Positions 11,490 to 54,581 of a stretch of DNA of 64,000 nt are shown piece by piece. The stretch comes from a phage: the NCBI GenBank assembly GCA_025823825.1, contig GCA_025823825.1_4720.1. One strand, given 5' to 3'. The position numbers were made by a program, and so were the translations under genes. Position 1 is the stretch's first letter, and the number at the start of each line of letters is the position of its first letter. Under the pieces are notes generated by a model, which saw only the letters and a program-made list of their open reading frames with translations, searched no databases and was not told where the DNA came from.

Positions 11490-11513
11490 ACGGATGTAAA
11501 AAAAAAAATAACA

Positions 11514-11563
11514 CATAGTTAACCTTCTCCCCAACCCGATGAGGGAAGGGGAGAAGGGCTATG
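11514..11563. terminator. conserved palindromic hairpin element, copy 2 (convergent); A10/T10 run adjacent
   Basis: cata-gttaaCCTTCTCCCC-aaccc-gatga-gggaa-GGGGAGAAGG-gctatg. Confidence 0.6.
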
Positions 11564-11574
11564 CGCTATTTAAT

Positions 11575-11850: not shown

Positions 11851-11911
11851 ACGGTTTCCTTATCAACTAGGGTATTGCAAATACAATACCCACCGTCGGA
11901 CGATAAGTTAA

Positions 11912-32000: not shown

Positions 32001-35000
32001 TTACTTGTAGGCACCGCAATGGGCTTTGATGAGGAAAAGCACCGCTTGCATCGGTTTATTGAACTGTTGCCATAACGTCAATGCCGGATGGAACAGCCAA
32101 TCTTCCAGGCCGAGAACAATACCGTAGTTAACGACATTATTAACATCGTTCTCAACGTTGAGTTCGCTGTCCAGGAATTTATCGATTGAACGCAGGGTCT
32201 GCATGGCGTTGTCAGCAATAAGCCAAGCTTCATGCGCTTCACGAGCCGCACGCAGCACTGCCTCCAGTTCGCTGATAGTAGCTACCGGTAATTCCTCGCT
32301 GGTGAGGTCGTCAGAAACCGTAAACTGGCGATTGATACCGGTGTAGATCCACTGCATCAGTTTCGCTGCTTCCTCGTTCGGGTTGTTACGCGTTGTCGCA
32401 TAAGTCGCGCTCACCTTCACGATGTGTGTTTCACCAAGATACGCTTTGGAACCAATGCCTTTACGATCGCTGTCTTTCCACGGTTGTACGGTAGCGACCA
32501 TGAGCTTATCCCATTTCTGAATAGGAATACGCTTCAGACCAACAACCGATCCGGCGGATGTTTCGGACTGGTTGCTCTTCCGCACGTCGCTGAGTTCACG
32601 ATCGATAGCAACGATTAATTCACGCGTCATGTTACCAAGCATTTTGATTTCACCCAACGCAGCGATGAGCTTCTTCACATCGGTAACAGGTTCACCATCG
32701 ATGGTAAGATGACGGATGAAACGTTTCAGAATAATCCGTTCTGCTGCTGGGTTACCGCGACGCGCTTTAGCCAATGCTTGCTGCGTTTCGGCGAACAGCT
32801 TATCCCATGGAGCCGTAGCGGCGGTATAGTAACGGTGGTTGGTTTCAATCCAGTTACCGATACGGTTGACCGCGCTCTTAACGGTATCCATGAATCCTTC
32901 CATCGCAATTTCGGTAGCTTCGACGTTACCCTGGAAGTTATCAGGACCGATCTCACGTGCCGCTACCAGAATACCTTCCACCGCGCTCACCGCATGACGA
33001 CCGATAGCCAGATTTCGCTGTGCTTCTTCAGCACGCTCAACGAATTCCACTACCGCAGGATCGTCGACGATTTCCGCCTCGGCAACAACACGAGTACCTG
33101 CATCGCCTTCCAGTGTTTCGATGGTGACAACCGGATCGTTTTCACCAGCAACATCCTGATACTCTTCCTGTTTGAGATCGCCATCATCGGCCGCTGCAAC
33201 AGCGGTGAGTATACGAACGGTAACATCGCCGAGTTCTTTTGCAGCGAATCCGTAAACAGTGCATGCGGTCGTTGCAAAGTTCATCAGAGTACGTGTGCGC
33301 TGCGTGACGTAGCGTGCGCCTGATTCGTTTTCCACTTTGTCTAGATCGCGGAGTAACTGCTCGGCCGTCTCCTGAAGTTGAGTAGCTGCTTTCAGGAGGT
33401 CTTCGTCAAACAGTTTCGTTGACGCATCGATCAGCATTTCAACGCTAACGTTGGACGGTACAGCATCATCCTGCTGTTTCATGGCGCTAAGTTCGTCACG
33501 GAACTCACGAATGCCGTTTAACGCATCGTCGATGGAATATCCGAACGCTTTCACGCCTGCCATTCCAAGAGCGGCTTTCATTTCACCTGGATGCTGAACT
33601 TGCTCGCCTTCCTTGCTGTTCTTTAACTCATCGAAATATTTCTTCGACGCGTCCGCAATACGTTTACTGTCTTTAACCGCATTTACGATCTTATCGACAG
33701 ATTTCGAGTCGTTTGCGAGCAGGGTATCCAGTTTATTCCACTCAACGTCAACCTTCTTGGTGTCGCTCGGCGGAGGAAGCAGTTTCATCACTGGTGCTGT
33801 GCGTTGTTCTTTGGTCAGCTTGTTGGCCTTCTCTTCGATTTTTTTCTTATTAACACCAAAGAGATTTTTCAAACGCGCCACGAGGGCTTTTAAGAACTTC
33901 GCGACCGCTTCGTAAACCGACTTCAGAATCTGTTTAAAGCGACCCGGCTGCTTTTCCCCGTCTTCCAGATTGAGATCGCTGTTCAGTGCGACATCAAGCT
34001 GTTTGTACGATTCCATGATGTATTCGTCTTTGATTTCAGGACGAATCTCGAAGCTTTCCATCGGACCTTCAGCCGGACGGAATTCCATTTTCAGTTCGCC
34101 TTGCAGGGTAGGGTCGACAATGGCGATCGCTTCACCCTGACCATCAGCGTTAAAGCGTTCAGCGTAACGAGTACGGCGAACAATAACACTCTTATCCCCA
34201 TCAAGACGACGTACTACCATGGTGCCAGGAATGTACGGTTGTTCTGTTTCAATGACGGTTACATCTGTTTCACCCTCACCGAGAATAACAGATGCACGCT
34301 GTTCAACAACAGGAACATCTAATACACCACGGGCTTCCAGCTCTTGATGAATTTCGAACGACTCTTGTTTCAGATCTTCATCTTCTTCGTTTTCGTCGCC
34401 TTCATCATCGTCACCTTTGGTGTTTTCATCACCCTTGGTGGTTGTGTCGTCGGTGGCACCAGCGTCAGCGTCGGTGTTAGCAGGTTCTTCGGACGCAGGT
34501 TCGGTGGTGTTGTCCTCCGTGGACGACCCGTCAATGTTATCGACATCAACATCACCTTGCAGTTCTGTTTCCTGAGCAACTGCTTCGGCTTTCTGCTCGC
34601 CGGTATTACCATCATTAGCGTCGACAACAGGTTGTTCGTCAGCGACGGTATCTTCAACCTTTTCTACTTTCTCTACGACATGTTTAATCACGGTGACTTT
34701 GATGGGTTCTTCCGTTGTTTTGGTTTCTGGCGTCACCTCGGCTGCCGCAGCAGCTGTTTCAGCAACAGGTTCTGCTTTTTCCGGTTCGACGACATTACCT
34801 TTAACGCCTTCGGTGGTTTCTGCAGGTTGCGCCGTCTGTTCGATTTGTGCCGGATTGGTCGGATCGATGGCGTTAGCCGCATCCTGAATCTTGTTCTTCA
34901 GGTTGTCACGGTCAGCGTTAACGGTCGGGTCATTGGTTACTTTCGGTGCCGGGGTTTCGGTCGGCGCGTTTGCTGGATATGGGTTCTTCGGCTCTTCGCC

Positions 35001-35378
35001 AGGTGCGGTTGGTACCGCGATCAGAACGAACGGTTGAACGTCGTTACCGTCTTCCATGGTTACGCCGCCGTTACTTGGCGTGAAACGAATTCGCAAACTA
35101 CCATCAATAGGACGGGTCACAATAACAGCGCGTACGACATCTTCACCGTTCTCATCCGTGCTACGAATCACACGAACGGCGTCATCAACAGTAGCCCCTT
35201 CCTCGAGCGTATCTGATTCGATCGTCGCTTCGATGCTGTCTGGCCGTGCCGCTGTAGGTAATGCGATCACCTGCTCTTCTTTATCAGTAGAAAGCGTCGC
35301 TTTGACTTCGATCGGTGTATCGCCGCTTTCCAGGTTAAGATGCGACTTACGCATCAGATCAGCTAACGATTTTTTCAT
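32001..35378 (-). CDS. large virion/head-type protein (1125 aa), paralog family D, acidic low-complexity N-terminal half
   Basis: Long ORF; central region (...SYKQLDVALN...KQILKSVYEAVAKFLKALVARLKNLF...) resembles other family D members. Confidence 0.8.
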   Translation of the reverse strand: MKKSLADLMRKSHLNLESGDTPIEVKATLSTDKEEQVIALPTAARPDSIEATIESDTLEEGATVDDAVRVIRSTDENGEDVVRAVIVTRPIDGSLRIRFTPSNGGVTMEDGNDVQPFVLIAVPTAPGEEPKNPYPANAPTETPAPKVTNDPTVNADRDNLKNKIQDAANAIDPTNPAQIEQTAQPAETTEGVKGNVVEPEKAEPVAETAAAAAEVTPETKTTEEPIKVTVIKHVVEKVEKVEDTVADEQPVVDANDGNTGEQKAEAVAQETELQGDVDVDNIDGSSTEDNTTEPASEEPANTDADAGATDDTTTKGDENTKGDDDEGDENEEDEDLKQESFEIHQELEARGVLDVPVVEQRASVILGEGETDVTVIETEQPYIPGTMVVRRLDGDKSVIVRRTRYAERFNADGQGEAIAIVDPTLQGELKMEFRPAEGPMESFEIRPEIKDEYIMESYKQLDVALNSDLNLEDGEKQPGRFKQILKSVYEAVAKFLKALVARLKNLFGVNKKKIEEKANKLTKEQRTAPVMKLLPPPSDTKKVDVEWNKLDTLLANDSKSVDKIVNAVKDSKRIADASKKYFDELKNSKEGEQVQHPGEMKAALGMAGVKAFGYSIDDALNGIREFRDELSAMKQQDDAVPSNVSVEMLIDASTKLFDEDLLKAATQLQETAEQLLRDLDKVENESGARYVTQRTRTLMNFATTACTVYGFAAKELGDVTVRILTAVAAADDGDLKQEEYQDVAGENDPVVTIETLEGDAGTRVVAEAEIVDDPAVVEFVERAEEAQRNLAIGRHAVSAVEGILVAAREIGPDNFQGNVEATEIAMEGFMDTVKSAVNRIGNWIETNHRYYTAATAPWDKLFAETQQALAKARRGNPAAERIILKRFIRHLTIDGEPVTDVKKLIAALGEIKMLGNMTRELIVAIDRELSDVRKSNQSETSAGSVVGLKRIPIQKWDKLMVATVQPWKDSDRKGIGSKAYLGETHIVKVSATYATTRNNPNEEAAKLMQWIYTGINRQFTVSDDLTSEELPVATISELEAVLRAAREAHEAWLIADNAMQTLRSIDKFLDSELNVENDVNNVVNYGIVLGLEDWLFHPALTLWQQFNKPMQAVLFLIKAHCGAYK

Positions 35379-35393
35379 AAAGCGTTATTCCTC

Positions 35394-36542
35394 TTAAAAG
35401 TAATATTTCAGCGCCTCGCGAGAGACATCAAGCATAGCCGCTGTTGAATTCGTAAAGAACTCGGCATAGCCCACAAGCGGCACCTTGATCCACGCGGTAT
35501 ACGCTGTAAGGTATCGAGAAAGGGCTACCATAGCATCATCAGAAGCAGTAGTAACTGACAACTGACCTTGTTGACGATAAACGTCGTTAAGTTTTGCTTG
35601 TAGATTCCCTGCGATTTCGAGTAACTCGTTGGCGTACTTTTTACGATGGTAACTAACCAGCAAATCAACACCCGTATTTACAGACTCGAGTAGCACACCA
35701 ACTTGTTCTAATGTTGGCGTTGTAACCACCATATCCAGTTCAACGGACGGTACATCCTGGACTTCAAACCGTGCAGATTGAATAGCGAGGGACTGTTGAA
35801 TTGAACCAGAACCTGAGGCGGTAACCTGATCGAGTCGTAGCGTACGGTTGCCCAGTAACGTTACGTTGACGAGTTTCGATTCGTTCAGCGTACTGTAGAC
35901 TTTATGCAATAACGTATACGCATCACGGTTAATCACATCGATTAATGCGGTATCCGTCTGTTTTAAGATAATGTCGAGCGCTCTATCTAACGTATTAGCG
36001 AACTGCTTGAAGTCATCACGGAACGACGAAGACAAGAGATATTCAGCGATTGCTAAATTCTGCTTGTATAACGTATTCCCGGTTGTGAAATCGAACCCAA
36101 AACTGTTCCCATACCGTAGGTGCGGAGCCAACGTCGACGAAGCTTCGAAGCTTTGCGCGATGGGTTTCCGACCAACGGCTTTTGTGTAATGACGGCGGAT
36201 GTTGCTGAGTTCGAGTTGTAGTGCGCGACTACGATCGATAAACCGTGCGATAAACGCGGTAATGTTCCGCAACGTTGTCCAGATCGCATCGATGATGGCT
36301 TTGATGATTTTCATCGCAAGCTGATTGTACGATTCCATCGTGAGGAGATCAGCACTTTCTGTGGTATAACCGGTTGCCGGAATACCGCCTGCTTGCTGAT
36401 AAATAAGCTGGTGAATTTGTCGTTGCGTTGCTGTCTCTGGCACAGGTAATGTTTTTAACAAGCTTAACGCTTGAATCTGTCCGTCATAGGTCTGCAGCAT
36501 TGCTGGTTTCCTCAAGTTCGAGATGCGCGTCAAGATAATCAT
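35394..36542 (-). CDS. virion/head-type protein, paralog family D (~370 aa)
   Basis: ORF; likely start at the second Met (about 36500); central helical region similar to family D. Confidence 0.7.
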   Translation of the reverse strand: MIILTRISNLRKPAMLQTYDGQIQALSLLKTLPVPETATQRQIHQLIYQQAGGIPATGYTTESADLLTMESYNQLAMKIIKAIIDAIWTTLRNITAFIARFIDRSRALQLELSNIRRHYTKAVGRKPIAQSFEASSTLAPHLRYGNSFGFDFTTGNTLYKQNLAIAEYLLSSSFRDDFKQFANTLDRALDIILKQTDTALIDVINRDAYTLLHKVYSTLNESKLVNVTLLGNRTLRLDQVTASGSGSIQQSLAIQSARFEVQDVPSVELDMVVTTPTLEQVGVLLESVNTGVDLLVSYHRKKYANELLEIAGNLQAKLNDVYRQQGQLSVTTASDDAMVALSRYLTAYTAWIKVPLVGYAEFFTNSTAAMLDVSREALKYYF

Positions 36543-37785
36543 TAAGACCGTCGATGACGTCGCAGACAGTTAACAGGAATCGGGCAAAAGCAACCGCCTG
36601 GAAGCCGACGACGTTACGCGCGATACCCACACGTTGAACGATAGCGGATGCGGTGGTATCGTCGTTGTCCATCTGTTGTAGCAAACGCTCGTAAGGTTGA
36701 ATCCATTCGTCCTGGTCGGCAAGGCTTGCTTCAAGACAACGTTTAAATTCCAACTGTCGTAGCGTAGACCATAACGTACTTAATGCGTTGATGATCGCGT
36801 TGGTTCCGTCGATAACATCGTTTAACGGTAAGAAACGGAATCCGTCTTTTGCTGATTGGAAAGATACGGCTTCCCACACAACACTGAACTGCGTTCCTGA
36901 TGCGTCTTCGATGTTGTGTAATTTAAGGTAGGAAGCACCAACAGGAACGTCAACGGCCAGATCGTCTGTTCCGGTAGGTGTTAACGGCTTCTCGCATAAC
37001 GCCTCGTTGATGGCCTCGAGAATATTCTCCCAATAGGCTTCGTTTTCCGCAGCGATACCTTCTTTGTTATCCGCTGATGGTGCTTTTAGTAGCTGCATTA
37101 ATAACGGATCAAGTTGACGGTGCCATGCTGCGAGGATTCCTGTGTTCGTTACGATGTTTTCTGCGGTTTGTCGTAAATCAGCAATACTGCTTACCGCACC
37201 GCCTTTCGGATGGAGATATCGCCAGTTGTAGGGAAAGTTCTCCCAGAATGCGTTATCTTCATCGACGTCGTATTCGGAAATATTTTTCAACGCAGCCGCT
37301 TTCTTTAATAACGGCTTCACCTGACGAACGAATCGACGATAACAACGATTACAGGTATCGATCGCGTAGCGGTATAACTCGTTCATGTAAAGCCATAACG
37401 CTCGGGTTGCTTCTTTTGCGGTCTTGTCAAAACTTTCCATGTTCAGACTCATCCCGCTGGAAGTTTCCTCTTCCAGACCCTCGATGATGTGGTTTGGATC
37501 CATCCCCATCCCGGCTGCTGCGGTCGATGCGATATGTTTGATGGTGTTGATATCGCGTTCCTCGACTTCAGCCATGTTTGGGATAATGTCCAGTCTGAGT
37601 TTATTTAATGTTTGAAGGTGTTGTTCACCTTCTTTCATCACCGTGTTTGTTTCGTCGATTGAGTGAAACTGATTCTCAATATTACCGGCATCGAGAATGT
37701 TGCCAGCGATACCGAACGATTCTACAGGTTCATCATCAATCCCTTGAAACAACGATGTCATGGGTTGTTGTAACACGTTTTCCAT
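36484..37785 (-). CDS. virion/head-type protein, paralog family D (433 aa)
   Basis: ORF; INTIKHIASTAAAGMGMD... and downstream helical segment align with 37935-39224 and 39234-40574. Confidence 0.75.
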   Translation of the reverse strand: MENVLQQPMTSLFQGIDDEPVESFGIAGNILDAGNIENQFHSIDETNTVMKEGEQHLQTLNKLRLDIIPNMAEVEERDINTIKHIASTAAAGMGMDPNHIIEGLEEETSSGMSLNMESFDKTAKEATRALWLYMNELYRYAIDTCNRCYRRFVRQVKPLLKKAAALKNISEYDVDEDNAFWENFPYNWRYLHPKGGAVSSIADLRQTAENIVTNTGILAAWHRQLDPLLMQLLKAPSADNKEGIAAENEAYWENILEAINEALCEKPLTPTGTDDLAVDVPVGASYLKLHNIEDASGTQFSVVWEAVSFQSAKDGFRFLPLNDVIDGTNAIINALSTLWSTLRQLEFKRCLEASLADQDEWIQPYERLLQQMDNDDTTASAIVQRVGIARNVVGFQAVAFARFLLTVCDVIDGLNDYLDAHLELEETSNAADL

Positions 37786-37885
37786 TTGGGACTCCTACGT
37801 AGGAAAATCTTGGCGGGTGATCATGTCCGCCATTTACCTTCTGAACCGTTGATTCAGAAGTCAAAAGATAACCGGATACCAATGC

Positions 37886-37939
37886 CATAAAACCTTCCTC
37901 CAACCCAACAGGGAAGGAGGAAGGGATATAGTGGTTATG
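37886..37939. terminator. hairpin element, copy 7 (tandem minus-strand genes)
   Basis: cata-aaaCCTTCCTCC-aaccc-aaca-gggaa-GGAGGAAGG-gatatagtggttatg. Confidence 0.6.
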
Positions 37940-39224
37940 CTTTTTCGGTCGCTGCGTTGAAGTATTTCGCTGCAGCAAATACAGCATCCGCATATTGGCG
38001 TATCGAAGCGCGAAGAATCTTGGTTGACAATACCGTACTTAAACGTGCCATTTCAGAAACCGCGCCTACATAAGGACGGATGGTTTCACGATCGGCTTCA
38101 GGCAGCTTGTCAAGCATGTCGCCCCACTTCGTTTTGATTTTCATACCGTTGAGTTTAGCGGTACGCTCCACAGAACCAGCCAAAGCTTCAACCATGTGGA
38201 AATAAGAGGGGTCGATCGTACGGAACACGTTAAGATAGGAAGTCAACGCACCTTTCAGTTCGTTATCGTCTTTGAAAATGTTTGCGTTCTCTATCTCACC
38301 GGTCACCGTCGTCTCGGCTTCAACCCGAATATTTTTCACCAACGTATAGGCTTTAATCGCGTCACGTTCGTTTTCGACGGCGTCGAGACCTTGAATAACG
38401 AAACGTTTCCCACCACTTTCTGGAAAAACAACTTTATTCAGAGCGGATTTGATAGCCAGCAGGTATTTGTCTAAGATAGACGGAAGCAGAGTTAGGTCGG
38501 TGAGGTCTGCGACCTTTTTATTGATATCGGCTACTTGCTTAAACAATGAATCCATCCCGCTTGCGCTTGCAGCGAGTTGTTCGATATGCTTGCTTGCAAA
38601 CATGGCATTCGCTGATTTCGCATTAGGGAACATATTGACCATATTTTCAGTGGGCTTATCCAGTTGTTTGATATGGCGTTCACCTTTATTCACGGCGGTT
38701 GCGATGCCGACAATTTTGTTGTATGCGACGACCAGGTTCTTGAACAGCATCTGGAGCAGTTTGAACAGTTGTTCAGCGATATTTGCAATGATTACCCAGA
38801 CGGCATATAACGCTTGCGCTGCGCGCTCTTTAAAGCCTTCCAGTACAATAGCTTGCCCTTCCACCAAACGATCGTCAGCTTGGAACATGTCTTCATCAGA
38901 CATCCCCAGGTTTGCTGCTGATGTCGAAGCAATCTGACGGATAAAGGCGACGTCGCTTGCACGTGCTTCAGGGATCGTGGGTGCGATCATATACGCTGTA
39001 TCTTCCAGTGTCGCTGATGTACGCACTGCAATCTCAGCCAGTTCGCTGGATTCATCGATTGCCTCGTCGGTACGTTGAATTACCAACTCAACTTCACCCT
39101 CTTCAATTTCTGCGTTAGGATCGTTCTGCTCCGCCGGAATCGTTGCGAGGAGATCTTCAGCACTCAGTAGAGAGAGTTCGAATGCGTTTTTATTGACGTT
39201 GTCAAAAAGAGAAATGCGGGCCAT
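37935..39224 (-). CDS. virion/head-type protein, paralog family D (429 aa)
   Basis: ORF; SDVAFIRQIASTSAANLGMS...VEGQAIVLEGFKERAAQALYAVW aligns with 39234-40574. Confidence 0.75.
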   Translation of the reverse strand: MARISLFDNVNKNAFELSLLSAEDLLATIPAEQNDPNAEIEEGEVELVIQRTDEAIDESSELAEIAVRTSATLEDTAYMIAPTIPEARASDVAFIRQIASTSAANLGMSDEDMFQADDRLVEGQAIVLEGFKERAAQALYAVWVIIANIAEQLFKLLQMLFKNLVVAYNKIVGIATAVNKGERHIKQLDKPTENMVNMFPNAKSANAMFASKHIEQLAASASGMDSLFKQVADINKKVADLTDLTLLPSILDKYLLAIKSALNKVVFPESGGKRFVIQGLDAVENERDAIKAYTLVKNIRVEAETTVTGEIENANIFKDDNELKGALTSYLNVFRTIDPSYFHMVEALAGSVERTAKLNGMKIKTKWGDMLDKLPEADRETIRPYVGAVSEMARLSTVLSTKILRASIRQYADAVFAAAKYFNAATEKA

Positions 39225-39233
39225 GTTAGTTCC

Positions 39234-40574
39234 TTAACCTTTGGTATAAGCGTTAACGAGAGTATTGATAAATGAAGTCAGTGCGCGAAGATATTGGTAA
39301 GCGAATTGGTTTTCAATGCGGTTCTCTTTACCACAAAGCAGAATCGCGCGCTTAACGAGCTTAGGATAGATCTCGACATACGGTTGGTAGCTTGCGTCAA
39401 AATTCTGCTCGTTGAAGCGTTTCATGGTGATTTCCTGGATACGCTCCATGGTGCGAATTTTATTGCGAGAGAATATCTCAGAGAAAGCACGTCCGCGTTT
39501 TGTTACCATCAACAAATCTTTCGCGAACGTAAGTTGTCGAACGCTACGCAAATCGTCAGGTGTTGGTAGGACGTACGTTTCTGGATCGTTATCCCATTCA
39601 ACATCTTCAACGACAATATCCAAGTCGAGGTAACGTTTAACAGCATCGATGATATTGTCTTTTGACGCATCGAATTCTTTCAAGAAGACTGCACCGTTGA
39701 CGTAGCGGATGCGTTTCCCGGAAACCGTTGGGGTGATAACATCAGCACCTTCCACGGAACCGCGATTTTCCAGTGTCGATTTGACAGCGTGCAAGAAAGA
39801 CAGATAATCAACAGGAAGTTTTTCAACCTTATCTAAATGGAAGTCGATGATGTTTAACCCTAAACCATCAATAACTGAATAACCGTCCGATTTAAGGAAC
39901 ATCTGATTGAAGGTATCAATGTTGCTTTTCAGCGCGTCTACACCACCAACGTTGTTACGGTTAGGGAAAAGCGTCCGCCACTCCGCTTTAAACGCAACTT
40001 CTTTATTTTCCTCGTATTTGCCTTTGGGCATCTGTTCGAGGGCTGCAACGGCTTTCTGAAAATTACGTGTCTCGTCGTAAACAAGACGGGTAAGCTTCTC
40101 GAAAGCTGCTGCCAGTGTCAGGGCAATATCAACAATGATATCCCAGATCTTTTTCATGGCTTTTACAACGGTGTCCTTAAACCCTTCAACAACCAAAGCT
40201 TCTCCAACTTCAACACGATCGGTTGGAGCTAACAATGTTTCAGAGGGTAGACCCAAAGCAATCGATGCGGATTCTTGAACGTTACGAACCAATGCAACGT
40301 CGCTGTAATTAGCCGATTCGATAGTCGGGGCAACATCAAAACTGATTTCCCGTAATGCTTCAACAGCAGGGAAAGCACGATCAAGTGCATCTTCATGTTC
40401 GTCGATTGTTGCCAAACGTAATTCAACACCGTCCGCGTCGATGACCTCAGCTGTCGGTTCCGCAGCAAGCGCCTCAGCAACAATAGGATATTTTTCAAAC
40501 GCCTCAAGGCTGATATCGCCTTGCGACCCAAATAGCGGTATGTGTACCATGTGTTGTCTCCAGTAATGATTCAA
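39234..40574 (-). CDS. virion/head-type protein, paralog family D (~438 aa)
   Basis: ORF; track start is TTG, likely ATG near 40550 (MVHIPLFG...) with ggag RBS; SDVALVRNVQESASIALGL...VEVGEALVVEGFKDTVVKAMKKIW. Confidence 0.75.
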   Translation of the reverse strand: MNHYWRQHMVHIPLFGSQGDISLEAFEKYPIVAEALAAEPTAEVIDADGVELRLATIDEHEDALDRAFPAVEALREISFDVAPTIESANYSDVALVRNVQESASIALGLPSETLLAPTDRVEVGEALVVEGFKDTVVKAMKKIWDIIVDIALTLAAAFEKLTRLVYDETRNFQKAVAALEQMPKGKYEENKEVAFKAEWRTLFPNRNNVGGVDALKSNIDTFNQMFLKSDGYSVIDGLGLNIIDFHLDKVEKLPVDYLSFLHAVKSTLENRGSVEGADVITPTVSGKRIRYVNGAVFLKEFDASKDNIIDAVKRYLDLDIVVEDVEWDNDPETYVLPTPDDLRSVRQLTFAKDLLMVTKRGRAFSEIFSRNKIRTMERIQEITMKRFNEQNFDASYQPYVEIYPKLVKRAILLCGKENRIENQFAYQYLRALTSFINTLVNAYTKG

Positions 40575-40591
40575 AAGATAAACCTGAGCGG

Positions 40592-40636
40592 CATAGAACC
40601 CTCTCCCAACCCGTGAGGGAAGGGAGAGGGAATATG
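40592..40636. terminator. hairpin element, copy 8 (tandem minus-strand genes)
   Basis: cata-gaaCCCTCTCCC-aaccc-gtga-gggaa-GGGAGAGGG-aatatg. Confidence 0.6.
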
Positions 40637-40652
40637 TCAGTTTATTAACTGA

Positions 40653-41984
40653 TTATTTCTGTTCTGCGTCAGCCGGTTTCTCAGCCGTCTGGCCGCCGTA
40701 CTCTTTCAGCATTTTAGCAACGCCATCCAGAACAGCATTACCTGCCTGAACACCGTACTTCATCAGGCTAACCTGCGGGTTGATGTAGCAAGAACGTGCG
40801 TCTTTCAGTGCAGACAGCACGGTTTTAACACGCTGTTTTTCCTGAGCAGAAACTTCGCCTTTCTTAGACAGTTCAGCTTCCATATCGTCGCCGAATTTAA
40901 CGGCGTCTTTGAAGCCCTGGGATTTCTTACCGATGTTACCTTTCGCAGCCAGCAGTTTATCAGCCAGTGCTTCAACACTGTTGATCACCGCAGCCAACTG
41001 GTTCGGGGACAGTACATCAGCTTCCTGTTCCATCGCGGTGATTGCGTTATTACCGCGTTCCCAGGTAACTTTACCGTCGGTGGTTTTGAATCCCCAACCG
41101 TTCGGACCTTTCACATCAGCGATCGCAGGTGCGTTCAGTTTGTCGGTGTACTCAGTATGTGATTTAGACTTAACGAGTTCAACGAATTTATCCGCACGAT
41201 CGTCAGCCGCCTTCATTGCTTTCTCGAAGGTATCTGCGATTTTGCTTGATGCGCCAGCGATATCGGTATCGCCAATGTAACCGGTAACAGTGGTGCCCAG
41301 TTTAACTTTCGCGTTCTTCGGAGAGCCTTTACGTTTGGCGATCATTTCTTTCAGTTTAGCCGCACGCGCTTTCAGTTTGGTTGCACCGTCGAAGATACGA
41401 TCGATGAACTTCACGAAGTTGTCCCAGGTGGATTTCAGGAAGTTCTTAATTGCGGTCCACAGTTTCTGCCACCATTTTTGTTCTTCCAGGAAGATCATGT
41501 TGGTTGCATCGTAACGGGAAGCGGAACCGCCGAAGCTTTCGAAGGACGGCATGGTTTCCGGCAGTTTGAAACCGATAGTACCACACAGACGTTTCAGATT
41601 ACGCATGTGTTCCTGAGCGGTTTGTGCAGACATACCGCCGTCTTTCAGGTAGCTTTCGGTCGCAACAACGGTTTCCGTCAGTTCATCCATGGCTTCGTCC
41701 ATGGCTTCTGCGGTTTCGTCGTCTTTTGCAATTTCGATAACAACGGCATCAACCTGCTCGATATCACCACGAACTTCGATAGCCAGTTCGGTTTCAGCTG
41801 CGGTATCTTCAGCAATTTCAGCACGTTCGGTCAGTTCAGCGACAACGGTTTCATCCGCTGCTGCAGCATCAGCTGCCGGTTCTGCTTCAACGGTTGCCGC
41901 TGCATCCGGATCGATTTCAGCAGCAAGTTGAACCAGCTGTGCGTTAGATGGATTTGCGACAAGACGATCAAAAATAGAAGGCAT
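40653..41984 (-). CDS. abundant virion/head-type protein, paralog family D (443 aa), A/E-rich acidic N-terminal region
   Basis: ORF with host-optimal codon bias like the 18116-20338 gene; N-terminal propeptide-like region with many A-x-E motifs. Confidence 0.8.
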   Translation of the reverse strand: MPSIFDRLVANPSNAQLVQLAAEIDPDAAATVEAEPAADAAAADETVVAELTERAEIAEDTAAETELAIEVRGDIEQVDAVVIEIAKDDETAEAMDEAMDELTETVVATESYLKDGGMSAQTAQEHMRNLKRLCGTIGFKLPETMPSFESFGGSASRYDATNMIFLEEQKWWQKLWTAIKNFLKSTWDNFVKFIDRIFDGATKLKARAAKLKEMIAKRKGSPKNAKVKLGTTVTGYIGDTDIAGASSKIADTFEKAMKAADDRADKFVELVKSKSHTEYTDKLNAPAIADVKGPNGWGFKTTDGKVTWERGNNAITAMEQEADVLSPNQLAAVINSVEALADKLLAAKGNIGKKSQGFKDAVKFGDDMEAELSKKGEVSAQEKQRVKTVLSALKDARSCYINPQVSLMKYGVQAGNAVLDGVAKMLKEYGGQTAEKPADAEQK

Positions 41985-42049
41985 AATTTTGTTTCCTTTA
42001 CAATAAATTGCACATTAGCTAATGCGGCTTAAGTGAACCGTCAGTTCAC

Positions 42050-43479: not shown

Positions 43480-43518
43480 GAGTGAGCACCTATGCTATTT
43501 CGAAACAGGTTGCGAGTG

Positions 43519-44625: not shown

Positions 44626-44626
44626 A

Positions 44627-45865: not shown

Positions 45866-45868
45866 TAA

Positions 45869-48862: not shown

Positions 48863-48878
48863 AACAAAATAGCGTGAG

Positions 48879-48921
48879 CATAACCCTCCTCCAACCCGTA
48901 AGGGAAGGAGGAGGGAATATG
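48879..48921. terminator. hairpin element, copy 9 (convergent)
   Basis: cata-aCCCTCCTCC-aaccc-gtaa-gggaa-GGAGGAGGG-aatatg; right flank aatatgctgttat identical to copy 1. Confidence 0.6.
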
Positions 48922-48924
48922 CTG

Positions 48925-51717
48925 TTATCTTACGTTATTGCTATTCTGTTGTTCACTGAACCAACCATACACCTTGAGATCGGTACCGTATTTCAATGCG
49001 ATATACGCATTCAGCGCAGCACAGAACAAAGACGCGAATGCCCATATCAGCGAAGGATCAACATCTTCCGTTACCACTGGGAGAGTATTATCCGGTTCCC
49101 ATGATGGTGAACTGTCCATGAACGTCGCGTACCATCCCCGCCGTTGTTCTTCGGTGGTAAAGTCGCTGTGGGGTTCCAATGCTTCTTTTGCCAGACGTCG
49201 ATATTCGAACATATGCGTTGCTAAAGCCGACGAGTTACCAGATTCGCCTTCATAGTTCGGATCCACCGCATAACAGAGTTCTGTTGAATCTAACAAAGCA
49301 ACCGCCTGTGTGATGCTGTCGGCAGTGCCTGCACCATAGAGCTCGATAGACCGCGAAAGCTTCTCACAGAACGCATTTAACGCGGAAGGATTGGACACCT
49401 GAAGGTCAAGGCCTAATGTCCACGGATAGTTACTGAATACACCCGTAAACCGTGGCATAACACCCAACAGATGCTGTCCGATTACAGCGCGGTTATAAAC
49501 AGCCCTGTTATAGACTTGAAACGCAGCCTCCAAGGCTTGGTTATAATGACGACGAAGTTCGTCACGCGAGTTGCGGAATCTGTTTGCCGCGAGACTCGTG
49601 GCTGCGACGCTACAAACATCGTAATTGGTGGACGAGAGCACAACCTCGTTAAGATCGAACGCTTCCTGTTTCAATGTTCCGCTAACAGCCACCGCTTCGC
49701 TGTTCGCTTTATCGACAACAGTACTCAAAGCGTTGATGTAACGCTTAGCCCGGACTTCCAGCCATTGTGCGATGCCGAGAATATCCACCGCAGCTTTAGC
49801 AAGATCGCGAGCATTCACGATTTCGTTCTTCAACGCCCCTAAATCTTTATTTTCAGGCGATGAGGCTTGTTGACGAATCATGCTGTTCAACATGGTAAGC
49901 AGATTATCCAACTCATGTCCACTGACCTTGTTACGTGCATCGGTAATCGGCCCTTGCAGGAATTTACGGCAACCATCGTTGTATCGAATCAGTTTATCCA
50001 CATCGATAGATTCGTTCGTGGATTCCTTGAACTGATTCTTCAATTCTTCACGGTAATCATGGATTTCACTTGCGAGATTATCGATAGTGATACCGTTATG
50101 TCCAAGAAGAACTTTATTGAAGTTACCTTTCTCGAATGCCAGAGCAAGACCTTCACGAATCTTAGCGAGTTTATCCTGATCGAGTTCACGACCGTTCGAT
50201 AGCTCTTTCACTTCCGAGCTGATTAATGCCGAAACGTTACCCAGATTGTCGGTAACCCCTTTGAACGCTCCCGACCAAATCGTTCCTGCTTCAGCGTATT
50301 TCGCAATGGTCTGAATACCGACGGTGTGCAGCGACGCTAAACGTTTCTTCGTGCCTTCGGTAAGCAGAGCGTCTTTAGCTCGCGTAAGCTGACTGTTATT
50401 AGCTTCTGCCTGCTGAATCGCTGCTTTCGCACTTCCATTACGCCAGCTCTTAACCAGCCAATCAACCAAACGTTTTAGGATATTGACGGTGTATTCCATT
50501 GTCCGCCGTAACGTTTCCCACGCGCTTTCTGCGGTATAGATGCCGTACCCTTCCATCTTCGTTGGGTCAAAGAAACCTTCCTGCATGAGATCAATACGGG
50601 TGTAGCCATCAGCAGCTTCTACTTCCGCCTGGGTTTTATCCCAGAAGTCGTCGCTCTTTGCAGCAACCGCTGTATCTTTAACGTCCAGGATGATCTGACC
50701 AACCGTTTGTGCAAACAGCAAGGCCGCACGTACCGATTGTGCGAACATCCGCTGATATTTGATTCGAACGCATTGCATCTGGGTTAGCAGATTCAGTTGT
50801 GCGATCCCATCCAAGGTGCTATCCTGAGCAAGCCCTTCGGCTTTAGCGATAACCTGTTTTACACGTTCAGCGACATCACCATACTGCTGGCAAACATCCC
50901 GCAGAATACGTGCCGCGAAGACCCCGGTACCGATATAGTTCAATAGGTCTTTTAACGACCATTCGGTCGGACAATCGGTCGGCGCAATAGGGAGTAAGCA
51001 ACCATCACCGTCCATGAATCTCTCTAATGCGCTAATATCCTGATTTTCTACGCTCATGGGGATATCGACATCAGCCGCTTGCAGATCCAGCATCTGTTGT
51101 AGGATGTTGGTATCGGCTTGTACAAGCGTCGCAAGCGCTTGGCTGTGTGCGATTATTGGTAACGCAGGTGACCATACTGCAGCAAGCTTGTCGGCGTGAC
51201 GTTGAATGGCATACCCCATATCCTCGATCACATCGGGATGCTCGATAACCCCCTGAAGCGTTTGATGTAGCTCACCGAGTTGCTGAGACAGATCGACCAT
51301 CATGGTGTTGAAGGTTTCGCCATCCTCTTTGTGGTTGTCCAGACGCTCGAGTTCATGTCGAAGCAATGTGACGAGCTGTCCGTTGCCTTCTTGCTTCAGC
51401 TTGCTTTCCATTAACGTAATGGCTTTATCGACGATCTGACACGCTTCACGAAAACCGGTTGTGGAAGGAAGCTCTGTCCATAACGCCAGCGGTTTACCGT
51501 CAAGGGCTTCCGGCATCGATAACGAAAGCATAGACAGTTGTTGACGTGATACTTGCTGTTCACGGTGTAGTGTTTCTTTTAACGCCAAGAGATCGTCAAG
51601 AAACGCGCCGTTAAGGGTGGTCGTACGCGGTGTTGAATTAATACCGTCAGTTAACGATTCAAGCACCAGGAGACCGTTATCAGCTGAAGAGAGTCCCGCG
51701 GCAAGATATTTGTTCAT
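48925..51717 (-). CDS. large virion/head-type protein (930 aa), probable paralog family D
   Basis: Long ORF; ATG lies in TTTATG right after hairpin with ggag RBS; helical central region resembles family D. Confidence 0.8.
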   Translation of the reverse strand: MNKYLAAGLSSADNGLLVLESLTDGINSTPRTTTLNGAFLDDLLALKETLHREQQVSRQQLSMLSLSMPEALDGKPLALWTELPSTTGFREACQIVDKAITLMESKLKQEGNGQLVTLLRHELERLDNHKEDGETFNTMMVDLSQQLGELHQTLQGVIEHPDVIEDMGYAIQRHADKLAAVWSPALPIIAHSQALATLVQADTNILQQMLDLQAADVDIPMSVENQDISALERFMDGDGCLLPIAPTDCPTEWSLKDLLNYIGTGVFAARILRDVCQQYGDVAERVKQVIAKAEGLAQDSTLDGIAQLNLLTQMQCVRIKYQRMFAQSVRAALLFAQTVGQIILDVKDTAVAAKSDDFWDKTQAEVEAADGYTRIDLMQEGFFDPTKMEGYGIYTAESAWETLRRTMEYTVNILKRLVDWLVKSWRNGSAKAAIQQAEANNSQLTRAKDALLTEGTKKRLASLHTVGIQTIAKYAEAGTIWSGAFKGVTDNLGNVSALISSEVKELSNGRELDQDKLAKIREGLALAFEKGNFNKVLLGHNGITIDNLASEIHDYREELKNQFKESTNESIDVDKLIRYNDGCRKFLQGPITDARNKVSGHELDNLLTMLNSMIRQQASSPENKDLGALKNEIVNARDLAKAAVDILGIAQWLEVRAKRYINALSTVVDKANSEAVAVSGTLKQEAFDLNEVVLSSTNYDVCSVAATSLAANRFRNSRDELRRHYNQALEAAFQVYNRAVYNRAVIGQHLLGVMPRFTGVFSNYPWTLGLDLQVSNPSALNAFCEKLSRSIELYGAGTADSITQAVALLDSTELCYAVDPNYEGESGNSSALATHMFEYRRLAKEALEPHSDFTTEEQRRGWYATFMDSSPSWEPDNTLPVVTEDVDPSLIWAFASLFCAALNAYIALKYGTDLKVYGWFSEQQNSNNVR

Positions 51718-51732
51718 AAAACACTCCGTTGG

Positions 51733-51764
51733 CCCAGGGGAAGGTTTTCAGCCTTCCCCTAGGG
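51733..51764. terminator. hairpin element, copy 10 (variant, directly upstream of RBS of 48925-51717)
   Basis: cccAGGGGAAGG-ttttcag-CCTTCCCCTaggg; about 13 nt from the ggag RBS of the next gene. Confidence 0.45.
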
Positions 51765-51776
51765 TTATAAACACAA

Positions 51777-54581
51777 TTAAGCTAATTTACCGAAACCGGC
51801 TTTCTGCAGTTTCTCGTTGATCAGTTTTGCTTCCGCGAAAACATAATCACGATACGCAGTCACTAACGCATCCACACGTGAACGCAAGGCTTCTTCGAAG
51901 CTATACCACGCAGCGATTTCACGAATCTGTGCGTTGATATAATCAACGGTTGAGCGAAGCTCGGTTGCGTTTTCTTGCGGGATGGCTTTCACCTGGCGAG
52001 CAACGTCATTTAAACGACGGAACTGCGTTTCGATTTCTTTAAACTTACTGTCGGCAAGTTTGCTGAATTCGTCACCGGAACGTGTAAATAACAGATAGCT
52101 GTTGCCGTCAAGTGCGGTCGCTAACTGCTGAAGTACGTTGGTGTCCGGATACACAGGAGTACCGCTTTGCAATACTTTCTCACCGAATTCCGCGAAGTCC
52201 TTCGGCGGTAAGTGCGCAGACGTTGTCAACTCGTTGAAACGGAAAGTCAGCGAATTGTCATACAGCATCCGGTACGCTTCCATGCCCTGTTTCATGGTAC
52301 CAGCCAGGTTGGCCAGACGCGGAGCAATCTCACCCTCTTTAGCGCGTTTCTGGTCTTCTAACGCCCCTTCCAGTTCTTTACACTGGTCATTCAGATACAC
52401 GATACGATCGGGACGCAGACGACGCATCTCACGAAGAATAGTATCCAGCTTACCTTCCTGGAAATAACCCAACGTTAAAGACGTACACGCTTGCTGAAGA
52501 CGATCGAAGACCGGTAAGGTCACCATCTCCTTACGGATACCATCAACAATCGCAGAAACAGCCGAAAGTTTCTGTTCTGTCGTTAATGGAACATCAGAGA
52601 CCGACTTGCTGGGCGCACCAACAACGTTACGCATTGCGTCGGTATCCTCGGTTTTATCAACCTCTTTACGAACATGCTCATCAGGAACATAAACGTTCGC
52701 ATTACGTTTCGCCTGCTTGATGGCATCGTTGGCCGCTTTTTCGGTGGCTGCTACGCTATCGGCACGTTTCTTCAAGAGTTCAATAATCCAGAGCACCAGA
52801 CGACGAATCGCAGTGTAGGCTGTCGTGATGATGACACCGATAACCGCCATCTTCATGATACCGAACGATTCCATGGTCGGCTCTAACGCCTGGTCGGGCA
52901 TATACCGTTCACGCAGCTCCAGATAGATCTGCTCATCCGGTTTGCTGATCTCGCCACGATGCGAAGTCCGATAGATGGCTTCGTCAATCTCAACAAGATC
53001 TTTGCGTGCCTGACGGTCTGTTTCGGTCAAATAAGCGCAGCCGGATACGTCGTCTTCAAAACTTTCGAACTTAAAGAAATCGACAACCATCTTGGCAAGC
53101 GCCTCTTTCTTAGCAGGATCGAGTGTCTTCGCATCTTCTTTTTGCTTATCCATTTTTTCCTTGAATTTCTCTTTGTAGTCATTCAAGGGTTTTACCGCTC
53201 TTGCTTTCAACGCGTTATAGATAGCTTTCCACTCATCGTTACGTTCGAGGACAATGAAATGGTTTTTGAGTTCGAAAGCGCGATAGCGTGCAACGAGCTG
53301 TTCTACCTGAATATGAGCGAGTTGGATATCCATTAACCAACGCGACATCGCCGAGATCAAACGGCTATAAGCGAACAACGTTTGGTAGGTTAACTTCATG
53401 TATGTTTCATACAGCTCAATATCGCCGCTCTGAATATTGGCTGTTGGATTCATTTCCTTTGTTGCCTTGAAGACCTGTTCTGCTTCTCTCAGCGTCTTTT
53501 CGAACTTAACGTCATTAAACGCAGTGAATGGTTCAGCCAACTCATGCATTTTATCGTGGAGTTCGCGGATCCAAGCTTCCTTGCTGTCGCGGATGGTGTT
53601 TTCATCATGGAGCACGGTTTGATGTTTTCGTACCCATTCTTCCACGATATCAGCAGCGGAAACAATCGGAACGCGATCTGAAATGAGCGGGACGATCGTG
53701 TGAAGCGCCCCGACACATTCTGGCGTGTCCCAGTGTTTCTGGAGTTCATCACGGAAACGGTTAATGTTTTCTAAGGTGGTACCTAAATCAAGGAAAGTGC
53801 CGCCATTATGACTCATCTGTGCAACCAGATCGGCAAATACCTTTTGTTTTTCGATGACAAAAGGAACCATCCGCATAAGCCATTCAGCAGTTGCTTTAGC
53901 CTTTTCTTTCAGGTTCTTATCAGCGATTTCCTTAAGGTTAATCGCGCTACCGTATCCAGCAAGTTCGTTGTAGACGTCGTTAAGCGTCATTTGTTTATCC
54001 AACATTTCTTTGAAACGTGGATAATCTGCACCTAACGCGTCGATGACTTCTTGGATGATGTCGTCTGTGGTAGCGATAAATTTATTTGTGCCGCCGTAAT
54101 GCTTCCAGATTTTCTGCAGCGTCTTCTTAAAGAATTCGAAGACGAATGTCCAGATACGTTTGATGAGTTCCCAGACTTTCTTCGCACCATCGACAAACAG
54201 TTTAGAGACCTTGGCAACGAATCCTTCCTGCACTAACTCAACGCCGTTACGTGATGGGATTTCCGTGAAGAAAGCATCTGGCAGTTGTTTCGGGAACGCA
54301 TCACCAAGACGCATACGCAATTCGGGTACATCGGCACGAGAAATACCACGCGTCGTTAGCTGCTCGTGAAGACGAACGTTTTCTTCACCAGAGGCTACGA
54401 ATTCGTTAACGTCAAATGAAACCAGTTCTTGATCTTCGGTGGTAACGACGCTTGAACCATCGCTGGTTTGGATGTCTTCGTCAGGGAACGCCATGAGCAT
54501 ACCGTGACGCATTTCAACCACTCCGTAATCGGTTGCTAAACCGAATTCGTTGTGATCGGGGGTAATAACTGGGATACTCAT
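51777..54581 (-). CDS. large virion/head-type protein (934 aa), paralog family D
   Basis: Long ORF; ...VELVQEGFVAKVSKLFVDGAKKVWELIKRIWTFVFEFF... aligns with the family D core. Confidence 0.8.
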   Translation of the reverse strand: MSIPVITPDHNEFGLATDYGVVEMRHGMLMAFPDEDIQTSDGSSVVTTEDQELVSFDVNEFVASGEENVRLHEQLTTRGISRADVPELRMRLGDAFPKQLPDAFFTEIPSRNGVELVQEGFVAKVSKLFVDGAKKVWELIKRIWTFVFEFFKKTLQKIWKHYGGTNKFIATTDDIIQEVIDALGADYPRFKEMLDKQMTLNDVYNELAGYGSAINLKEIADKNLKEKAKATAEWLMRMVPFVIEKQKVFADLVAQMSHNGGTFLDLGTTLENINRFRDELQKHWDTPECVGALHTIVPLISDRVPIVSAADIVEEWVRKHQTVLHDENTIRDSKEAWIRELHDKMHELAEPFTAFNDVKFEKTLREAEQVFKATKEMNPTANIQSGDIELYETYMKLTYQTLFAYSRLISAMSRWLMDIQLAHIQVEQLVARYRAFELKNHFIVLERNDEWKAIYNALKARAVKPLNDYKEKFKEKMDKQKEDAKTLDPAKKEALAKMVVDFFKFESFEDDVSGCAYLTETDRQARKDLVEIDEAIYRTSHRGEISKPDEQIYLELRERYMPDQALEPTMESFGIMKMAVIGVIITTAYTAIRRLVLWIIELLKKRADSVAATEKAANDAIKQAKRNANVYVPDEHVRKEVDKTEDTDAMRNVVGAPSKSVSDVPLTTEQKLSAVSAIVDGIRKEMVTLPVFDRLQQACTSLTLGYFQEGKLDTILREMRRLRPDRIVYLNDQCKELEGALEDQKRAKEGEIAPRLANLAGTMKQGMEAYRMLYDNSLTFRFNELTTSAHLPPKDFAEFGEKVLQSGTPVYPDTNVLQQLATALDGNSYLLFTRSGDEFSKLADSKFKEIETQFRRLNDVARQVKAIPQENATELRSTVDYINAQIREIAAWYSFEEALRSRVDALVTAYRDYVFAEAKLINEKLQKAGFGKLA

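Follow-up and report, generated by a model that had tools for sequence, protein, structure and literature searches.

We examined a 64,000-nucleotide stretch of phage DNA (GenBank assembly GCA_025823825.1, contig GCA_025823825.1_4720.1; the window), in which a reading of the sequence without database searches (the original prediction) had placed eight paralogous genes for virion or head-type proteins between positions 32001 and 54581. The coordinates that it gave for these open reading frames (ORFs) are exact, and all eight lie on the minus strand. Between positions 36000 and 42000 the DNA of the window matches that of Escherichia phage vB_EcoM_Goslar at 91.6% identity and, judged by this sequence, the phage is a chimallivirus of the Goslar type, one of the nucleus-forming jumbo phages with kinship to phiKZ. 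The eight ORFs are orthologs of Goslar gp53 to gp58, gp64, and gp65, with gene order kept, and each is annotated in Goslar as “hypothetical protein”; for gp53 to gp58, amino acid identity to Goslar is 77 to 97%. Using the Goslar names, the genes are gp53 (32001 to 35378, 1125 amino acids), gp54 (35394 to 36542, 382 amino acids as listed), gp55 (36484 to 37785, 433 amino acids), gp56 (37935 to 39224, 429 amino acids), gp57 (39234 to 40550, ending at a likely ATG start; listed ORF, 39234 to 40574), gp58 (40653 to 41984, 443 amino acids), gp64 (48925 to 51717, 930 amino acids), and gp65 (51777 to 54581, 934 amino acids).

The locus is syntenic with phiKZ gp84 to gp101 and with the equivalent regions of SPN3US, PhiEaH1, RAY, PhiPA3, 2050HW, and RP12. 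In this alignment of gene orders, phiKZ gp84, gp85, and gp86 correspond to gp67, gp66, and gp65 of Goslar and the window (gp64 being an extra gene), gp87 and gp88 to gp63 and gp62, gp89, gp90, and gp91 to gp61, gp60, and gp59, the internal-protein array gp92 to gp97 to gp58 to gp53, and gp98 to gp101 to gp51 to gp48. The genes gp53 to gp58 sit between gp59 (gp91-like) and gp51 (gp98-like), which is the position of the array of PF12699 genes, and gp64 and gp65 lie outside that array, in the gp86 slot.

When the eight proteins were compared all against all by BLASTP and phmmer, gp55, gp56, and gp57 were related to one another (BLASTP E values of 5e-18 for gp56/gp57, 3e-9 for gp55/gp57, and 3e-7 for gp55/gp56; phmmer, 1e-17 to 1e-9, with gp55 at about 1e-9 to gp56 and gp57) and the remaining pairs all had E values above 0.1, so that a core common to all eight is invisible to simple comparison. 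The two peptides that had been quoted as examples of a shared central helical core occur only in gp56 and gp57, at residue 121 of each. Against the Pfam family PF12699 (phiKZ_IP, internal head proteins of phiKZ-like phages; gathering cut-off of 27 bits), gp58 scored 73.7 bits, gp57 25.8 bits, and gp54 22.3 bits, the latter two just under the cut-off, and gp53, gp55, gp56, gp64, and gp65 had no PF12699 match at an E value below 0.1. PF12699.14 is the precomputed Pfam assignment for close homologs of gp58; gp58 also matched the PHROGs “internal head protein” families at 2e-8, and gp53 and gp54 matched them weakly. When gp58 was compared by tblastn with 50,697 phage records, the only matches were to Goslar and, weakly, to one Pseudomonas phage, which suggests that the family diverges too fast for this method.

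For an iterative search with hidden Markov models (HMMs), we used the syntenic regions of seven chimalliviruses (phiKZ strain fnug, SPN3US, PhiEaH1, RAY, PhiPA3, 2050HW, and RP12), which hold 591 ORFs of at least 100 amino acids, mostly unrelated or spurious sequences that served as decoys, and iterated phmmer and hmmsearch from gp58 as the seed. The internal-protein arrays of the other phages were recruited in iterations 1 to 3, gp54 (E value of 3.6e-9) and the proteins of the phiKZ gp86 slot (3e-7 to 3e-5) in iteration 3, gp56 in iteration 4 (1.7e-5), gp57 in iteration 5 (3.3e-9), gp65 in iteration 6 (1e-4), and the Goslar copy of gp64 in iteration 7 (8e-5). Among the 591 ORFs, none was recruited from beyond the internal-protein (IP) cluster and the gp86 slots, which leaves out some 540 unrelated ORFs. 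The same iteration begun from a single-sequence hmmbuild model recruited nothing, and seeding with phmmer succeeded.

Since such an iteration can drift, we built separate alignments and compared them by hhalign in local mode, with a reference “IP core” of 32 sequences taken from other phages only. The match probability to this core was 99% for gp58 (E value of 4.6e-17, 322 columns), 95% for gp53 (2e-8, 273 columns) and 96% for residues 760 to 1125 of gp53 alone (3.8e-9, 274 columns), 95% for gp54 (3.5e-8, 124 columns), and 91% for a joint profile of gp55, gp56, and gp57 (1.3e-6, 105 columns). Eight syntenic virion families analyzed as controls (homologs of phiKZ gp84, gp87, gp88, gp89, gp90, gp98, gp99, and gp101) reached at most 4%, and the ranking was unchanged in a global-mode matrix. 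These profile comparisons establish gp53 to gp58 as a genuine array of PF12699 paralogs. The profile alignment that the original prediction had proposed as a check on its family therefore did reveal significant similarity among these six proteins; the common core claimed for all eight genes, and their assignment to the head, inner-body, or ejection protein families of phiKZ-like phages, stand for the six, with gp64 and gp65 sharing, at moderate confidence, an N-terminal module alone, gp65 being a vertex-binding protein and gp64 its divergent neighbor.

An AlphaFold2 (AF2) model of gp58 (predicted local distance difference test [pLDDT] of 69 and predicted template modeling score [pTM] of 0.63) had 111 matches in BFVD at E values of 1e-3 or less, with template modeling (TM) scores up to 0.74, all to virion or internal head proteins of chimalliviruses. 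We checked the helix-rich shared fold on gp58 alone; for gp54 to gp57, the same fold has been reported from AlphaFold3 (bioRxiv 10.64898/2026.04.21.720040).

The position of the conserved segment can be related to cleavage sites mapped in other phages. In SPN3US, mass spectrometry has mapped cleavages of the PF12699 proteins gp53 and gp54 at AQE-125↓GWKETLKDLFER (GWKETL) and ARE-137↓SLWDDIK (PMC10052503), and phiKZ gp86 is cleaved at SQE-122 (PMC5694885), which is the sole N-terminal SQE of that protein and ends at residue 122 counted from the ATG. When aligned by hmmalign, these three sites share one column of the IP-core HMM, where phiKZ gp92 to gp95 hold S-x-E and six window proteins hold AME↓GF (gp53), TME↓SY (gp54), VLE↓GF (gp56), VVE↓GF (gp57), FLE↓EQ (gp58), and TAE↓SA (gp64). 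The residue at P1 is Glu in all six, and the residue at P3 is A in gp53 only, being T, V, V, F, and T in gp54, gp56, gp57, gp58, and gp64, respectively. From the alignment with the three mapped sites, the “central helical core” is predicted to be a maturation-cleavage site (x-x-E↓G/S-aromatic) followed by the first amphipathic, Trp-containing helix of the mature protein. The segment singled out in the original prediction is thus conserved under another identity, and the comparison with phiKZ and SPN3US head proteins that it had called for places mapped cleavage sites in the same column as six of the window proteins. Of the processing at S/A/G-x-E that it had expected, the Glu at P1 is retained in the six aligned proteins and the residue at P3 fits in gp53 only.

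The window proteins would be cleaved at these Glu residues as follows. In gp53, the PF12699-type domain is the C-terminal third (residues 760 to 1125, approximately; positions 32001 to 33101), and the predicted maturation site in the HMM-aligned column is IAME(827)↓GFMDTV, with the Glu codon at 32898 to 32900 on the minus strand. The predicted sites in the same column are LTME(70)↓SYNQLA in gp54, a PF12699 member whose N terminus is not acidic; IVLE(129)↓GFKERAAQALYAVW (IVLE(129)↓GFKERA) in gp56; LVVE↓GFKDTVVKAMKKIW (LVVE(130)↓GFKDTV) in gp57, where the Glu is E130 in ORF numbering and E122 from the ATG; IFLE(167)↓EQKWWQKLW in gp58, a bona fide PF12699 protein with a very acidic, A/E-rich propeptide; and YTAE(397)↓SAWETL in gp64. 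The HMM aligned gp55, whose nearest relatives are gp56 and gp57, differently, and this protein carries the motif outside the mapped-site column, with candidate sites HIIE(102)↓GL and LNME(117)↓SFDKTAKEATRALW (NME(117)↓SF). The predicted first residue of the mature protein is E168 or, alternatively, S150 in gp58, S398 or G381 in gp64, and G120 in gp65.

The product of gp65 is 99.4% identical to the chain named “PVC protein gp65” in PDB 11fg, in which it is modelled in the Goslar capsid, and has been described as the homolog of phiKZ gp86 and as belonging to the vertex-binding complex that lies beneath the capsid pentons (bioRxiv 10.64898/2026.04.21.720040). Synteny, this structure, and hhalign against the gp86-slot proteins of five phages (77 to 84%, E values of 8e-6 to 2e-5, 46 columns) agree in placing it in the gp86 slot and the vertex complex. 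The Pfam model for this slot, PF25617 (PhiKZ_gp86, gathering cut-off of 26 bits), appears narrow: it gives more than 500 bits for phiKZ-type gp86 and PhiPA3 gp89 and only 20.7 bits for 2050HW gp14. Within gp65, an N-terminal block, GISR...TEIPS (residues 77 to 113), is followed by LVQE(119)↓GFVAK...KKVWELIKRIW; the protein aligns to the IP-core HMM only by way of the helix KKVWELIKRIW, and LVQE(119)↓GFVAK lies fourteen residues earlier.

A second internal motif of gp65, PTME(571)↓SFG, precedes a hydrophobic helix. This second copy of the motif (PTME↓SFGIMKMAVIGVIITTAYTAIRRLVLWIIELL, residues 568 to 605, approximately; positions 52770 to 52880) contains the most hydrophobic segment of gp65 and resembles ALE-111↓SWANAGKVGLVVLIMTAIIKIIGWII of SPN3US gp47, where a predicted transmembrane helix has been reported. 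We considered whether gp65 is a tandem of two PF12699-like modules and rejected this arrangement, as its C-terminal half reached a non-significant 2 to 8% by hhalign against all profiles; the resemblance holds at the level of the motif only. We also noted that chain C7 of PDB 36za, labelled “Inner-peripheral baseplate spoke gp32,” carries the sequence of gp65 residues 134 to 934 (positions 51777 to 54181), so that either the label comes from another molecule of the entry or the chain is mis-named; its first residue, 134, is 14 residues past the predicted cleavage site.

The product of gp64 is a near-orphan virion protein with a conserved C-terminal part. An exhaustive search found relatives in 4 representative clusters among 1.84e9 proteins, a scan of viral contigs found relatives at Goslar-like loci only, and its AF2 model was poor (pLDDT of 46, pTM of 0.36). 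What ties it to the gp86 region is its adjacency and an N-terminal block that matches at 62 to 75% by hhalign. This block, residues 53 to 96 (VSR...WTELPSTTG), resembles gp65 and other gp86-type proteins: aligned as VSRQQL...PLALWTELPSTTG with residues 77 to 121 of gp65 (ISRADV...PDAFFTEIPSRNG) it gave a probability of 74% (E value of 2.8e-5), and with the gp86-slot family (gp86B) it gave 75% (2.5e-5). A second block, LMQE(380)↓GFF...YTAE(397)↓SAWETLRR, leads into a Trp-containing helix, and residues 396 to 428 matched the Trp-helix columns of the IP core at 80% (1.5e-5, 32 columns); controls against the gp64 blocks gave 0%. The blocks of gp64 are colinear with those of gp65, with about 280 residues between them, and tandem paralogs occupy the gp86 slot elsewhere (neighbors in RP12 match at 6e-10, and two RAY neighbors are linked through shared relatives), so that an origin of gp64 and gp65 by duplication is plausible. 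Overall, gp64 and gp65 match the IP family over a short N-terminal module (24 to 81% over 29 to 46 columns), and by these alignments it is this module, not the whole protein, that they share with the family with confidence.

The original prediction had described the set as having acidic, A-x-E-rich N-terminal regions, a label that fits about half of it. The net charge of the first 120 residues is −27 in gp58, −19 in gp56, −18 in gp55, −15 in gp57, and −15 in gp65, all clear cases; it is −10 in gp53, a moderate one, and −3 in gp64 and +5 in gp54, to which the label does not apply (other window genes, about −3). Ala and Glu make up 26 to 38% of the N termini of gp56 to gp58.

We also found that constraint is unevenly distributed along these proteins. 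Among 50 Goslar-like variants of gp58, which are the top database matches and hence biased to close relatives, the propeptide (residues 1 to 167) is 1.0% non-consensus, versus 9.3% downstream of it, a pattern that would fit a constrained assembly signal joined to faster-evolving cargo. Compared with Goslar, the ratio of nonsynonymous to synonymous substitution rates (dN/dS) is 0.07 to 0.25 for gp53 to gp58, 0.03 to 0.05 for gp64 and gp65, and 0.007 to 0.03 for gp48 to gp51, gp62, gp63, and gp66. The highest dN/dS of the region (0.46, from few substitutions) belongs to the ortholog of gp52 (positions 31529 to 31912, 127 amino acids), which lies between the internal-protein array and the gp98 homolog. 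The gp56 gene is 77% identical to its Goslar ortholog with a dS of 1.2, versus 94 to 100% identity and a dS of 0.07 to 0.3 in neighboring genes; on these values it looks like a replacement by a distant allele and not like local drift. In gp64, residues 100 to 350, approximately, form a hypervariable cassette that is 20 to 48% identical in two Goslar-like contigs (L009, positions 9151 to 11964; L011, positions 10001 to 13597), where the flanking genes are mostly 91 to 99.8% identical (gp65, 85% in L011). The gp64 of L011 also has 264 additional amino acids inserted behind residue 386, shortly before the predicted cleavage motif.

Published Goslar mass spectrometry and structural data place all eight orthologs in virions, as the original prediction had proposed. 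By liquid chromatography-tandem mass spectrometry, gp53 to gp58 are present at about 330, 70, 50, 60, 50, and 2,150 copies per virion, respectively, and gp58 is the dominant internal protein and is injected (bioRxiv 10.64898/2026.04.21.720040); gp064 is present at about 110 copies (mass spectrometry table in the supplement of the same preprint, 10.64898/2026.04.21.720040). In phiKZ, gp175 cuts gp93 and gp162 so that their helix-rich domains are set free and their N-terminal arms remain bound to the inside of the capsid, and gp86 is likewise a cleavage product (PMC11297242). Published work also describes PF12699 paralogs as injected and associated with the lipid early-infection vesicle, and the authors of the SPN3US study infer a prohead-targeting role for the propeptide of gp47 (PMC5694885).

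We consider it likely that the locus is the internal-head-protein region of this phage, with gp58 to gp53 as tandem late PF12699 genes and gp65 and gp64 in an adjacent operon, and that its products follow a common route. An N-terminal region, in most cases acidic and rich in Ala and Glu and some 70 to 170 residues long (more in gp53 and gp64), would direct each protein into the prohead, by analogy with the systems above acting as a targeting signal, and would bind the inner capsid surface or core. The prohead protease would then cut after the conserved Glu, before a G/S-aromatic dipeptide and an amphipathic Trp-helix, and this helix would become the N terminus of the mature protein. The freed, helix-rich domains of gp53 to gp58, about 300 residues each, would fill the head as high-copy internal cargo and be ejected with the DNA, and gp65 would stay under the capsid vertices in the vertex-binding complex.

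Several observations weigh against this reading. At the aligned site, P3 is not S, A, or G in five of the six proteins, so the specificity of the protease may differ or the sites may lie elsewhere. Other [SAG]-x-E motifs occur 0 to 5 times per N-terminal 120 residues, and the propeptides of gp56 to gp58 hold 4 to 5 each; either V, T, or F at P3 is acceptable to the protease of this phage, or cleavage takes place at [SAG]-x-E motifs further upstream. The mapped cleavage sites come from SPN3US and phiKZ, and none from Goslar or this phage. In Goslar, cryo-electron microscopy saw no ordered inner body (bioRxiv 10.64898/2026.04.21.720040), and an inner body as a structure in this phage is unproven. 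For the two outlying genes, gp65 matched the IP core directly at a weak 24 to 51% by hhalign, neither gp64 nor gp65 had a PF12699 or PF25617 match in Pfam at an E value below 0.1, and the links found are short alignments (32 to 63 columns) between thin profiles with probabilities of 62 to 84%.

These last points bear on a narrower account in which only gp53 to gp58 are paralogs and gp64 and gp65 are unrelated alpha-helical capsid proteins that came to resemble them at the N terminus by convergence. The same prohead loading and the same protease would demand like signals (GISR...TExPS, xxE↓G-F, and a Trp-helix); the similarity is limited to 30 to 60 columns at E values of about 1e-5, in proteins that lack a Pfam match; the dN/dS of gp64 and gp65 (0.03 to 0.05) is that of structural proteins, in contrast to 0.07 to 0.25 for the internal head proteins; the role of gp65 is fixed and structural; and the published lists of paralogs with the PF12699 fold that we consulted do not include gp86. 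We regard this account as possible but doubtful. Given the profile matches of both N-terminal blocks, the link of gp64 and gp65 to the family seems moderately supported, and we infer that they share ancestry with the internal head proteins. That the family as a whole is an artifact, produced by an Ala/Glu/Lys-rich helical or coiled-coil composition and by profile drift, is very improbable and, for gp53 to gp58, largely refuted: the eight other virion families, several of them helical, stayed at or below 4% in each hhalign comparison, zero of the approximately 540 unrelated ORFs were recruited, the curated PF12699 model alone gives gp58 73.7 bits, the matches are position specific and coincide with the mapped cleavage column, and the BFVD matches, with TM scores up to 0.74, are exclusively to chimallivirus proteins.

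Two further proposals concern what the mature domains do. They could be ClyA-like membrane effectors that insert into or remodel the early-infection vesicle in place of organizing DNA in an inner body. The top PDB matches of the gp58 model by Foldseek are mostly ClyA-family alpha-pore-forming toxins, and these matches are weak; the model has very long helices and a small beta insert (residues 297 to 323), injected PF12699 proteins co-localize with the lipid vesicle, and hydrophobic Trp-helices follow the cleavage site, where SPN3US gp47 has a predicted transmembrane helix. We judge this proposal improbable. More open, and still tentative, is the idea that a portable loading and cleavage cassette, formed by the N-terminal block (G-I/L-S...; x-x-E↓G/S-aromatic; Trp-helix), unites the internal head proteins, gp86, gp65, and gp64 in one superfamily, and that the fast-swapped cargo consists of injected, host-facing effectors. 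The cassette would then remain constant while gp56 in its entirety, the gp58 mature domain, and residues 100 to 350 of gp64 turn over by allelic replacement, and the cargo would be engaged in an arms race like that of T4 IPI* and would not be inert, DNA-organizing packing material.

The original prediction had noted a duplicated leader upstream of gp55 and gp57, and a 13/14-mer, GGTT(T)ATCTTTTGA, is indeed present at 37861 and 40571 on the minus strand. Elsewhere in the window there is no copy with one mismatch or fewer; at 3 mismatches, 15 matches were found versus 12 expected, which is chance level, and we rejected the 14-mer as a widespread motif. The leader makes up the downstream part of a module, some 75 nucleotides long and common to both sites, that consists of a 9-bp G+C-rich hairpin, TT(T/C)TATG, about 15 nucleotides, and the 14-mer. 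Upstream of gp55 (37861 to 37925, minus strand), the hairpin CCTTCCTCC-N14-GGAGGAAGG at 37925 to 37893 is followed by TTTTATG at 37892 to 37886, with a putative +1 G at 37886, and by the leader GGTTATCTTTTGA at 37873 to 37861. Upstream of gp57 (40571 to 40631, minus strand), the hairpin CCCTCTCCC-N14-GGGAGAGGG at 40631 to 40599 is followed by TTCTATG at 40598 to 40592, with a putative +1 G at 40592, and by the leader GGTTTATCTTTTGA at 40584 to 40571, a copy that overlaps the TTG “start” of the listed ORF.

Both modules are nearly invariant between this phage and Goslar, and their stems differ from each other by compensatory changes (CCTTCCTCC/GGAGGAAGG versus CCCTCTCCC/GGGAGAGGG). In phiKZ, the consensus of late promoters is TATG, whose G is +1, and sequence further downstream is also required (PMC4666361). 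The simplest reading of the sequence is that each module is a terminator-type hairpin followed by a putative late promoter, with the leader in the 5′ untranslated region. With their compensatory stems, the modules are probably under selection and would not be a passive relic of gene duplication. Scans for sigma-70 promoters and intrinsic terminators gave counts no higher than those expected from shuffled sequence, as one would anticipate for a phage with RNA polymerases of its own. In the gp55 spacer, the Goslar annotation marks another hairpin, further downstream, as a terminator (Goslar positions 16812 to 16833; window positions 37811 to 37832).

Directly behind the gp58 stop codon and ahead of the hairpin (positions 40632 to 40652) is a short AT-rich inverted repeat, TCAGTTAATAAACTGA, found only in the module copy upstream of gp57. 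Further arrangements of a hairpin and TT(C/T)TATG are present on the minus strand at 56457, 60523, and 63192, upstream of minus-strand genes, one of them about 97 nucleotides upstream of the gp67 start at 56360; these may be more terminator/late-promoter junctions of the phiKZ TATG type.

Two of the listed starts were revised. For gp57, the listed TTG at 40574 is probably spurious and the real start is probably the ATG at 40550, which has an upstream GGAG and is the start annotated in Goslar. For gp54, the listed start at 36542 overlaps gp55 by 59 nucleotides and is probably too far upstream; the Goslar start is 14 codons further downstream. As a separate observation, near-complete Goslar-like contigs (about 235 to 247 kilobases) are common in assemblies labelled as Salmonella enterica, E. 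coli, and Shigella isolates, which suggests that enterobacterial cultures often carry such phages along or are contaminated by them.

The PF12699 family has reportedly been known since the proteomics papers on phiKZ, 201phi2-1, and SPN3US. The PF12699 array of Goslar, its abundance in virions, and the role of gp65 are already published, and our finding is mostly known biology; the original prediction recognized a known kind of gene family, stretched it to eight equal members, and transferred the cleavage motif too literally. The modest additions made here from sequence comparison are a predicted N-terminal module and cleavage column common to gp86/gp65-type proteins, gp64, and the internal head proteins, residue-level predictions of cleavage sites, and a map of constant segments (the propeptides) versus segments that turn over (the gp58 mature domain, gp56, and the gp64 cassette). 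In earlier work by Ali et al., the gp86 slot was taken as a separate, fast-evolving gene. A virion carries thousands of copies of PF12699 proteins, which are delivered together with the DNA into the early infection vesicle, and their role is an acknowledged question for nucleus-forming jumbo phages (bioRxiv 10.64898/2026.04.21.720040); the additions made here could also help in designing tags that load cargo into jumbo-phage capsids.

Among known systems, Goslar is the closest: its gp53 to gp58 are gene-for-gene orthologs in the same Pfam family, with published predicted fold, packaging, and injection of gp58. The alleles are distinct, gp56 being 77% and gp58 87% identical here and flanking genes 98 to 100%, and the Goslar preprint maps no cleavage sites and does not include gp64 and gp65 in the family. 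The internal proteins of phiKZ (gp92 to gp97, gp162, and gp163) and SPN3US (gp53 and gp54, paralog family A) have the same architecture, in which a long propeptide is cut off behind a Glu from a mature, helix-rich domain of some 300 amino acids, and occupy the same slot between the gp91 and gp98 homologs, where the number of copies varies between phages (2 in SPN3US, 6 here, and 7 to 8 in PhiPA3 and RP12). They differ in that identity to the window proteins is below 25% and that the P3 residue of the aligned site, S in phiKZ and A in SPN3US, is mostly V, F, or T here; in Goslar, unlike the phiKZ system, the single member gp58 dominates copy number and no ordered inner body was seen. In the slot of phiKZ gp86 (PF25617), SPN3US gp47, an essential ejection protein, is cleaved at ALE-111, directly before a hydrophobic, Trp-containing helix (PMC5694885). 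The gp65 protein shares this slot and is a reported structural homolog of gp86 in the vertex-binding complex, but it is twice as long, has a second domain, and falls below the PF25617 and PF12699 thresholds, and gp64, with its hypervariable insert of about 280 amino acids, has no phiKZ counterpart.

The internal proteins IPI, IPII, and IPIII of T4 have an N-terminal targeting peptide that the prohead protease removes after Glu, are packaged at high copy number, and are injected with the DNA. This analogy has been drawn for jumbo phages before (PMC10052503 and PMC5694885). The likeness is functional, with no relation in sequence or fold, and the targeting peptides of T4 are about 10 residues long, in contrast to 70 to 170 residues or more in the proteins described here.

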